Positions 15,201 through 18,200 of a DNA stretch of 64,000 nucleotides are shown here, one piece after another. Under the pieces are notes generated by a model. It searched no databases, was not told where the DNA came from, and saw nothing but the letters and a program-made list of their open reading frames with translations. The stretch covers positions 434,001 to 498,000 of the forward strand of contig NIVC01000460.1 in the NCBI GenBank assembly GCA_002269645.1. The letters are read 5' to 3'. How positions within the stretch are numbered: the first letter of the stretch is position 1; each line of letters starts with the position of its first letter. The translations under genes and the position numbers were made by a program. Origin of the DNA: Macrostomum lignano. Lineage: Eukaryota.

Positions 15201-18200
15201 TGAAGGATTATCGAGACTCTGCGGCGGCTAGGAGTGCAAGTATGTGAAGGATTATCGAGACTCTGCGGCGGCTAGGAGTGCAAGTATGTGAAGGATTATC
15301 GAGACTCTGCGGCGGCTAGGAGTGCAAGTATGTGAAGGATTATCGAGACTCTGCGGCGGCTAGGAGTGCAAGTATGTGAAGGATTATCGAGACTCTGCGG
15401 CGGCTAGGAGTGCAAGTATGTGAAGGATTATCGAGACTCTGCGGCGGCTAGGAGTGCAAGTATGTGAAGGATTATCGAGACTCTGCGGCGGCTAGGAGTG
15501 CAAGTATGTGAAGGATTATCGAGACTCTGCGGCGGCTAGGAGTGCAAGTATGTGAAGGATTATCGAGACTCAGCGGCGGCTAGTAGTGCAAGTATGTGAA
15601 GGATTATCGAGACTCTGCGGCGGCTAGGAGTGCAAGTATGTGAAGGATTCTCGAGACTCTGCGGCGGCTAGGAGTGCAAGTATGTGAAGGATTATCGAGA
15701 CTCAGCGGCGGCTAGTAGTGCAAGTATGTGAAGGATTCTCGAATTTGGATCTGCAGTCTCATGACCTGATTGTGATTGACGATTTACTGGATTAAGCAGC
15801 TGCAAGTCGAGAGCTACGACATCTGTTCACCCGTGAGGCCCACCACAAGCCCTGCTTTGTCATTCTCATCACGCAAAATCTATTTTTCAAAGGCAGAGTG
15901 GCGCACAATTAGCATAAATTGCACCTACATTGTGTTGTTCAATAACCCCAGAGACACCTCTGCGGTCCAAGCTTTAAGTCAGCAATGCTTTCCCAAACGG
16001 CGCACTCTGCTAGTAGAACTGATGGATCGATTGGTGCGAGATGGAGATCAGCGCTATCTGCTGCTTGATTTTCACCCCGCTTCACCCCATGAACTGCGCC
16101 TGAGAGCCAATTTTCTCCCCGATGAGGCCCCGCAGCGAGTTTATCTATAAGAATGGCTCAGTCTCTGCACTGAGTTAAACATGAATAAACACATTGCACT
16201 AATAACTGTCTTTTGTGAGGGCACTATATCCTTGCGTCGCTGCATACTTACCTATGCAAATAAAAGCACCATTTGCTGTTTGGTCGAGTGTATTATCAAC
16301 TTACTAGCAGGAAAAGTTGGCTGTGAAGATAGCTTGAAGCGGAGACTCAGGCGATATCGAAATACTCTCCGGCTTGTTGCACAAAGCAAAAGTGTGAAAA
16401 AGGCTCGGCGCAATCTCTCACACCCGCACATCCTTCGTTGTCTTCCTCTGATTCTCACCTGTATAAAAAGACATGTACAAGGAAATGATACTGGTACCCC
16501 GGTTGCAGTATGAGGCACTTGTGAATCAGAGGGGCATGGAGACAGTCTGTGAACCCGAGCTAGAGGCGGAAAAACAGTTGCGCAAGAATAGGGACGAGCG
16601 TTGCGTGCAGCAGCTGCAGGCAAGTGCGACCCAAGAACTCCAGTAATTCACAAAGAACCGCAGTGGAAGGAGGTGCTATATCTGACGGTGAATCAGAAAT
16701 GGCATCATCGTCTGCAGGCATTGATTAGCTTCATAACCATAAAGTGCAAGTCGATTAGCATAGATGATACGTATGGAGTTTCCGTCAATGGTAAACCGTT
16801 GTACAACTCAAAATCGTGGACCTGCTGCATTTCATAGTTAAAGATACGTACTCTAAGTACCTTCAGCCACCGAATGGGATTAATGAGTTTTTGTTACGTG
16901 TCTTCAAGAAAACCACGTGCCTCTGTCTGCAGTTGGTCTGAACACTACAAAATTGCTGGAAAAGCCTCGGGAAGAAAAGTCCAGTCCTAAAAAACCTCGA
17001 CTGCAAGGCTATAAGAAGACTCAGTCTCAGAAAGGATACGGCAAGTGGATCAAGTGGCCAAGATGATTGTCAATGATTTTGAAGGATTTCCGCACCTCTA
17101 CAAAACAGAGGACTTTGTGATTAAGAAATTGCATGGGTTGAGTTTGCATGCGGTCAAACGACGGCTCATTACTATTGCTACCGACCGCCGCACAGCTTTG
17201 AGCTCTTTGATCGAGGACAGCGACGAACCTGCTACTGGCTCACCAATAAGCGGCACGGTCTAGACTGGGACAGGAGTGGGTTCCGACCCTACTCTTGTCT
17301 CTGGAGCGATATCTCTCACTTGCAAGGCCCGATATTTAGCAAGGGGGATGTCAAGTGCCAGTTCCTGTCGCGTCTGCTGCTACAGCCTGTCTACGACCTA
17401 GCACACCTAGCCTTTCCGAGTGCCTCAAAGTACGTGCTAACCTGCGCCCTGGCCAAAGTGGCGCTGTACGCTGATTGGCTGCGGCCTCGCGGCTACGGGT
17501 CTATAAAAGTAGCGATCTGCAGCAGGCACTGGCGTTTCTCTCGATTGTCTAAAGATGGTCGCAACAATTCGCGTGACAAACATCGTGACAGGAGCCGACC
17601 TGGCGACCCGGGTGGGTCTGCCACAACTAGCGAATTTCCTGACACTTCATCTGCCTCAGTACGAGTATCACACAATCCGCCATCGCCTGGTTCATCCTCG
17701 AACACTGGCAGTGGTGATGAAGAGCGGGCAGCATCGAGTAACCGCGCTGGTGTATCCGACCGGACAAGTGTCTGTCTGTGGAGCCAAAAGCATGGAGGAG
17801 GCTCTCGCAGAGACGGAGAATATTGTGAGGCTGTGTGCGGACTTCTTGCGATTGACCAGTCTGCCCCAGATTCGCATCAAGACTATTACCTCTGTGACGG
17901 CCTTTTCCGCGGGTCGGCATCCACTCCGGTTGGGGGAAGTCAAGTCTAAATGGCCGCATCGGGCCACCTACGAGCCGGAAATGTTTAACGGACTTGTGCT
18001 CAAGTTTAATGCCTCTGTAAAGTTGATTTTGTTTCATTCGTATCGTTGTATAATAGCTGGCGCTCGCAGCGTGGTTGAGGCTCAGACTGCAGCTGATGCC
18101 CTCTCCCGCATTTTGCATGCAGACCAAGCATCCGAACCTACTTTGCTGGACTCTGATTGAGCTCCTCTACGGCATAACAGTAGTAGTGAGATCTGCCTAT

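Follow-up and report, generated by a model that had tools for sequence, protein, structure and literature searches.

Polintons and adintoviruses, as set out in the parts of Starrett et al. 2021 (PMC8502044) covered here, resemble the elements described below in their terminal inverted repeats (TIRs), 6-bp duplication, pPolB, retroviral-like integrase, protease, ATPase and capsid-module order. A TATA-binding protein (TBP) gene is labelled in the legend of the MELD virus figure of that paper, whose searched passages hold no analysis of TBP selection, residues or promoters. In the literature surveyed (subscription journals and bioRxiv supplements lay outside its scope), this legend is the only text linking a TBP to such elements, and the searched part of the PMC8502044 supplement file gave no match. 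A preliminary description of the present locus, made from its letters alone, did not count TBP as a standard Maverick gene; the legend label makes the gene less unprecedented than this implied, although no further mention was found. What is a label in the covered part of PMC8502044 is here a fixed gene of two Polinton families, paired with a promoter box.

Giant viruses (Nucleocytoviricota) encode TBPs that, in the sections of Ravarani et al. 2020 (PMC7221094) consulted, are divergent with a changed N-terminal lobe, as is the element TBP; the word Polinton is absent there. KSHV ORF24, the viral TBP of beta- and gammaherpesviruses (10.1101/2025.08.25.672222, seen in part), combines a virus lacking its own polymerase, a TBP-like protein and a variant TATA box for late genes, and the model proposed below would resemble it in these respects.

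A TBP gene at a fixed place in two Polinton families

The window, the whole 64,000-nt stretch of Macrostomum lignano DNA that was analysed, contains a 10.2-kb Polinton of what we call family A, with AGTAGTAG ends and inverted arms. Its features are as follows.

10016..10021 and 20251-20256 (+): left and right copies of the 6-bp target-site duplication GCCCTT, from the sequence
10022..20250 (no strand): Polinton/Maverick copy, family A, from the TIR arms and blastn/tblastn against sibling copies
10022..10367 (+): left TIR, with the AGTAGTAG end
10964..11538 (+): pPolB arm remnant, 47-51% to the region at the start of a sibling's pPolB
12525..12935 (+): integrase fragment (PF00665, E 1.8e-9)
13073..13080 (+): CATAAGAA box, 107 nt before the putative major capsid gene, in a lysine-rich coding context and the weaker case
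13180..14450 (+): putative major capsid gene, broken, 41% to the family-B orthologue
14447..14920 (+): cysteine protease gene (weak C48 match; family-B orthologue PF00770, E 0.003)
14830..16150 (+): packaging ATPase gene, broken
16146..16153 (+): TATAAGAA box, 35 nt before the PZ-like gene
16181..17062 (+): PZ-like gene(s), with orthologues in family B
17010..17017 (+): TATAAGAA box, 53 nt before the exonuclease-like gene
17063..17949 (+): exonuclease-like gene 5' of TBP, broken here, with an N-terminal D-x-E/Q motif
17474..17509 (+): ATTGG (a CCAAT box in reverse) and canonical TATAAAAG, 5' of the TBP ORF
17555..18160 (+): TBP-like ORF, 201 aa, two TBP repeats
18274..18279 (+): AATAAA poly(A) signal after TBP
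18586..19288 (-): PC4-like gene adjoining the right TIR, broken here; sibling proteins match PF02229
19337-19344: canonical TATATAAT of the PC4-like gene
19870..20250 (-): right TIR

This copy is an internally deleted derivative that is missing most of pPolB, the 3' part of the integrase gene and the putative minor capsid gene, and several of its other genes are broken; the C1131 copy has the same layout (98%). The major and minor capsid genes are presumed to be such from gene position and motifs; when both families were searched for double-jelly-roll major or minor capsid proteins, Pfam, NCBIfam and PDB sequences all came back without a match, also for the putative major capsid gene of the window. 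The PZ-like gene is likewise a putative assignment. The Walker A motif of the probable ATPase and the His/Cys motifs of the probable protease are visible, with weak profile matches. Calling the gene upstream of TBP exonuclease-like is our own reading of its D-x-E/Q motif; its Atlas neighbours are unnamed eukaryotic clusters, with Maelstrom only at 0.88.

The insertion site of the window element is a host 33-34-bp tandem array (window 9907-10019 and 20251-20463), directly after an exon (frame 9436-10023) that presumably encodes an unc-13-like C1 domain. Inside the window ATPase gene lies an array of 15 44-bp units (15083-15742) that sibling copies lack. Positions 10750-10910, 5' of the pPolB arm, hold several ATTGG/CCAAT boxes and a TATA-like TTTATAAA, and in a sibling copy the sequence 5' of the pPolB arm is identical to that 5' of the PC4-like gene. 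The right-hand block (PZ to PC4-like) of the family-A copy at L060:6274 is inverted relative to the window copy. Elsewhere in the window (60624-61676), and unrelated to the TBP finding, two perfect inverted arms of 296 bp flank a spacer of 461 bp.

The genome contains at least 151 matches to the TBP, in two Polinton families, A and B, a count that is a lower bound as 150 of 196 candidates were scored. Among the 150 matches listed, 46 belong to family A (48-100% identical, fragments included) and 104 to family B (35-40%). TBPs of the two families are 35% identical and the gene occupies the same place in both, following the shared order integrase, putative capsid genes, protease, ATPase, PZ-like, exonuclease-like, TBP. 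At each of the 20 family-B loci that were retrieved, TBP has a Polinton core gene as its neighbour (ATPase upstream in 19, pPolB beside it in 1). Element proteins are 23-56% identical between A and B, and blastn of the window element against three B loci found no DNA match. PF03175 identifies pPolB in a family-A sibling and in 4 of 5 family-B frames tested, the window copy having only a remnant, and PF00665 identifies the retroviral-like integrase in the window copy and the family-A sibling. One family-B copy (C754) has a perfect 6-bp duplication; four other family-B copies examined do not.

Outside this genome, A-like relatives are P0002, P0003, P0153 and P0024 (50-60%) and B-like relatives are P0004, P0154, P0165, P0166 and P0009; contigs of the metagenomic A-like and B-like relatives are 0.9-3 kb long. 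Scans of viral contigs gave no matches to the TBP alignment, to the capsid and ATPase queries or to two relatives of the capsid, and metagenome scans gave none or one spurious locus (L110). The gene models P0006, P0007 and P0008 splice pieces of element TBP onto unrelated host genes and are probably annotation artefacts. A programmed exonuclease-like/TBP fusion (L019-L021, L049, L050; P0005) was considered and rejected, as the join point differs between copies, which we read as decay.

The genome also holds Polinton families C and D, which were read in 17 stretches (L076, L088-L103). By tblastn these have no TBP, exonuclease-like or PC4-like gene, and by profile search no TBP. Family C has a PF21738 capsid match, family D is 25-29% similar to C, and one copy among these loci holds a nested piggyBac-like transposase.

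In both A and B a PC4/Sub1-like gene adjoins the TIR (window 18586-19288, minus strand; L075:7338-8072), and the genome has 151 matches to it. PF02229 finds the domain in sibling proteins of both families at E 3e-5, under the cut-off; comparison with MoSub1 gives E 0.013 and PC4 clusters appear at 0.83-0.87. Related PC4 clusters occur in nematodes, molluscs and arthropods.

Fold, residues and descent of the element TBP

The ORF at 17555-18160 encodes a two-repeat, saddle-forming protein of TBP fold. The evidence can be listed as (i) two matches of Pfam PF00352 to the 201-aa ORF (E 5.8e-21); (ii) 35 PDB sequence matches, all of them TBP or TBP-containing chains (best E 1.6e-10); (iii) an AlphaFold model from a 13-row alignment with pLDDT 87 (59 for a single-sequence fold), for which the top Foldseek matches in the PDB are eukaryotic and archaeal TBPs (E about 1e-12, TM 0.6-0.7); (iv) giant-virus TBPs as the best fold matches among the viral models of BFVD. 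The preliminary description had reported an uninterrupted frame with both repeats inside the TIRs and proposed a fold comparison; the two PF00352 matches, the TIRs with their GCCCTT flanks and the recovered fold agree with it.

Element TBPs are bare cores of 187-201 aa, and the window protein is 24% identical to host TBP and 20% to host TRF2. Aligned with host TBP it keeps E140, E142, F144 and F160 and has L51 and Y67 in place of the repeat-1 phenylalanines, just as had been read by eye. Of the features by which TBPs are recognised, two of the four intercalating phenylalanines (F144, F160) and one of the central Asn pair (repeat 1) are therefore retained. All 15 element-type rows aligned keep the repeat-1 Asn, the E-P-E stirrup and both repeat-2 phenylalanines. 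The second repeat-1 Phe is Tyr in every element row, and the first is Leu in family A and Trp in family B. The opening Asn of repeat 2 is Thr in all element TBPs aligned, a change the preliminary description did not include. With two of four Phe and one of two Asn changed, DNA binding could be weak or lost.

An insertion of about 8 aa had been placed in the repeat-1 stirrup. It is present, but most copies have 10 extra residues, located in helix H1/strand S2; two residues of it are found in only 1 of 30 loci. Helix H2, in the basic N-lobe patch (TFIIA/Mot1/TAF1/Brf1), is acidic in family A and basic in family B. The acidic reading of it (AETENIVR) holds for family A, except that N89 is Lys in 26 of 30 loci, and the proposed escape from TFIIA/NC2/Mot1 does not survive as a general point, the acidic H2 being specific to family A. 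Element TBPs as a whole are basic (pI 9.5-11.3).

Functional roles of TBP positions follow the parts of PMC7221094 covered and known TBP-DNA structures. The acidic C-lobe stirrup has a known role in adapter binding (TFIIB/Brf), according to the same parts of PMC7221094. Since the stirrup is invariant and no element TFIIB was detected, the likely partner points to host TFIIB or Brf1. A PF00382 search of the genome for TFIIB, which a very divergent TFIIB could escape, scored all 23 candidates and gave 15 hits, none of them as numerous as the elements; two PF00382 loci that were read are host TFIIB and a Brf-like gene. Modelling the element TBP together with the part of host TFIIB that one exon encodes gave a score of 0.03, uninformative either way.

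In a 71-row tree, which took in 57 of 143 other hits picked by similarity class and carries our own group labels, the 13 element-type rows form one side of a branch (support 100/95). This clade (A, B and metagenomic relatives) stands apart from host TBP, host TRF2 and archaeal-like rows; element branches are long, and the tree leaves the sister group without resolution. A clade of elements with host TBP is rejected (p-AU 0.012, 34-row subset). Five family-B pairs have dN of 0.06-0.13 and dS of 0.39-0.77 in repeat 1, and dN of 0.28-0.50 with saturated dS in repeat 2; dN/dS in family B is about 0.15, which is purifying selection. Thirteen near-identical family-A copies carry 20 synonymous and 24 non-synonymous states (omega 0.41, P 0.003), by a test that ignores transition bias and is weaker than this P suggests. 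The copy search, phylogeny and dN/dS proposed in the preliminary description thus speak against a single copy, a place with host TBP or TRF2, and dN/dS near 1.

A one-off host retrocopy drifting in the window insertion would account for an intronless ORF, and the core of host TBP also lies in one exon. The low identity to host TBP, the multiple copies in a separate clade, purifying selection, the AU rejection and the relatives outside this genome refute that explanation, to which we give next to no credence. A gene of TBP fold sits at a fixed place in two families, under purifying selection and in one clade, and the ORF is best read as a viral TBP that a single Polinton lineage has carried for a long time.

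The frame of the exonuclease-like gene stays open over TBP repeat 1 in both families, for 107-111 codons in 11 of 11 family-B loci, ending at the start of repeat 2, and for 129-131 codons in 11 of 12 family-A loci. Under synonymous resampling the probability of no stop is 0.002 in A and 0.005-0.026 in B. The same frame has 3-9 stops over repeat 2, and its amino acids over repeat 1 are without conservation.

The TAAGAA box and a proposed early-to-late switch

The new observation here is that TAAGAA is the top-ranked hexamer upstream of genes in both TBP-bearing families and at chance level in C and D. It ranks 1/4096 in three scans, one of family A (4 of 9 genes, P 9e-5) and two of family-B sets, each with the hexamer at 7 of 10 genes (P about 1e-7); the gene sets were hand-chosen, the B types are related, and the family-A integrase was omitted, its start not being fixed. 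The form [AT]TAAGAA precedes 4/9 genes in A and 6/10, 5/7, 6/8 and 2/3 in the B types, set against 1/12 in C and 1/15 in D. Families C and D are distant, lower-GC lineages, so the link between motif and TBP is confounded by descent.

The box is mostly CTTAAGAA in B, where 18 of 24 sites begin with C, and mostly TATAAGAA in A. Its distance to the ATG is 35-58 nt for the integrase, putative minor capsid, ATPase, PZ-like and exonuclease-like genes. For TBP in family B (box present in 15 of 15 loci checked) it is 74-83 nt, and for the putative major capsid gene 104-110 nt; the box is absent before the protease and the second PZ-like frame. Relative to the genes upstream the box takes more than one reading frame, in one case spanning a stop codon, and its codons are rare ones (TTA is 7.5% of Leu); it is therefore a DNA signal and not a protein motif. 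No conserved initiator is visible downstream of the boxes.

Genes adjoining the TIRs, the PC4-like gene among them, and TBP in family A have canonical TATA boxes instead, spaced at 46-96 nt in the same elements. At the window TBP ORF, ATTGG lies at -81, TATAAAA at -53 and AATAAA 116 nt past the stop, in agreement with the signals first described; the TATA box is present in 16 of 17 loci (L001-L017). Contigs of four runs presumed to be RNA cover 19-30 of 30 bins, intergenic DNA included, a coverage that is uninformative about transcription.

The TBP together with the shared TAAGAA box suggests a built-in early-to-late gene switch. We propose that the viral TBP probably directs host TFIIB/Pol II to the late genes of the element, much as ORF24 does in herpesviruses. 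Host TBP would first transcribe the genes with canonical TATA boxes (PC4-like, pPolB arm, family-A TBP). The element TBP would then bind YWTAAGAA boxes via its altered first repeat, recruit host TFIIB through the kept acidic stirrup and in this way deliver host Pol II to the genes for the integrase, the capsid module and the ATPase and to the exonuclease-like gene. In family B the box before the TBP gene itself would give positive feedback. DNA binding, the TFIIB partner and the timing are parts of the switch model that we infer. The promoter-steering role suggested in the preliminary description gains independent support from the shared TATA-like box, but its candidate targets are TAAGAA boxes before inner genes and not the canonical TATA boxes.

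Family B is mosaic (L031-L046). Capsid arms share 95-99% DNA identity and polymerase arms 45-70% protein identity, and near-identical capsid arms are joined to at least 6 polymerase arms. In 8 of 8 pairs mapped the switch point is within the TBP gene, where repeat 2 begins; repeat 1 is inherited with the boxed genes and repeat 2 with pPolB, which lies tail-to-tail with TBP. In TBP-DNA structures the 3' half of the TATA box is contacted by the N-terminal repeat, and the invariant 3' half of the element box is AGAA. The junction position fits a specificity located in repeat 1; a plain crossover preference at the best-conserved stretch would look the same. Tentatively, the element might encode a minimal switch in which a TAAGAA-preferring TBP and a PC4-like cofactor redirect host TFIIB/Pol II to virion genes, with specificity in repeat 1 and hence family-B swaps that keep repeat 1 with the capsid arm.

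An unlikely alternative would treat TAAGAA as weak TATA boxes read by host TBP/TRF2, the element TBP being a non-specific booster that supplies extra TBP on newly replicated element DNA. In family A TATAAGAA is one position off the canonical box, and PDB titles report complexes of wild-type TBP with TATA boxes carrying the single changes G(-26) or T(-30), so TAAGAA boxes might be legible to host TBP. Family B, however, mostly has CTTAAGAA, three changes from TATAAAAG, and a G defines the top hexamer in both families although the same elements use canonical boxes elsewhere. TAAG is also the late initiator of baculoviruses, and virophage promoters match those of their giant virus. The box contains (A/T)TAAG and its shortest distance to an ATG, 35 nt, would leave a very short 5' UTR under a TATA model, as might be expected if it were an initiator for a helper-virus RNA polymerase of baculovirus/nudivirus type and the TBP did another job. 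Yet the invariant part reaches TAAGAA, aligns with the TATA box at a spacing like that of canonical boxes, and is at chance level in the TBP-less families, which makes a helper polymerase quite improbable; a LEF-8 search for one was blank, and its control was equally blank.

The promoter box would be left without explanation by two further proposals. The kept TFIIB-contact glutamates and changed repeat-1 DNA-contact residues would suit a decoy, one that ties up host TFIIB/Brf1 or further partners of TBP and holds down host transcription or defence. Yet throughout the clade the altered residues of the DNA face are constant (Tyr, Thr; aromatic Trp in B) and the protein remains basic, and we regard a decoy as improbable. 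A factor that bends or coats DNA for replication, integration or packaging, with no part in transcription, would match the tail-to-tail arrangement with pPolB in B and the inheritance of repeat 2 with the pPolB arm. The acidic stirrup, the adapter-binding surface in the parts of PMC7221094 covered, is nevertheless invariant, and such a function is very unlikely.

The preferred reading, a viral TBP that steers host TFIIB/Pol II to late genes, bears on the timing of capsid gene expression in integrated animal Polintons without an RNA polymerase, and on whether these keep a viral phase. If true, it would provide a naturally occurring TBP of altered specificity with an apparent dependence on host TFIIB, in contrast to the solutions of giant viruses and herpesviruses, and the family-B mosaics would be natural lobe-swap variants for mapping specificity.

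Comparison with known transcription systems

Host TBP and TRF2 share with the element TBP the fold, the repeat-1 Asn, the YEPE stirrup and both repeat-2 phenylalanines; they differ from it in overall sequence, at the identities given above, and occupy separate branches. In most giant-virus TBPs the acidic stirrup is variable and the virus supplies a TFIIB of its own, as far as the covered parts of PMC7221094 report, whereas both glutamates are invariant in the elements and no element TFIIB was detected.

The herpesvirus comparison (10.1101/2025.08.25.672222) is limited to the portion of that source covered. A variant TATA box before late genes has its counterpart in the TAAGAA enrichment, with 'late' being putative in the Polintons; the box is TATTWAA in the herpesvirus and YWTAAGAA here. 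ORF24, large and made of several domains, makes direct contact with Pol II as part of a viral complex of six proteins, whereas the element protein is a bare two-repeat core that has sequence similarity to TBP and is without the extra Pol II-binding domain. A section heading of that source describes ORF24 as incompatible with TFIIB binding, whereas the element TBP keeps the TFIIB-contact glutamates. By this analogy the element TBP would work like the herpesvirus mimic, while being a member neither of that system nor of the giant-virus TBP-TFIIB pair.
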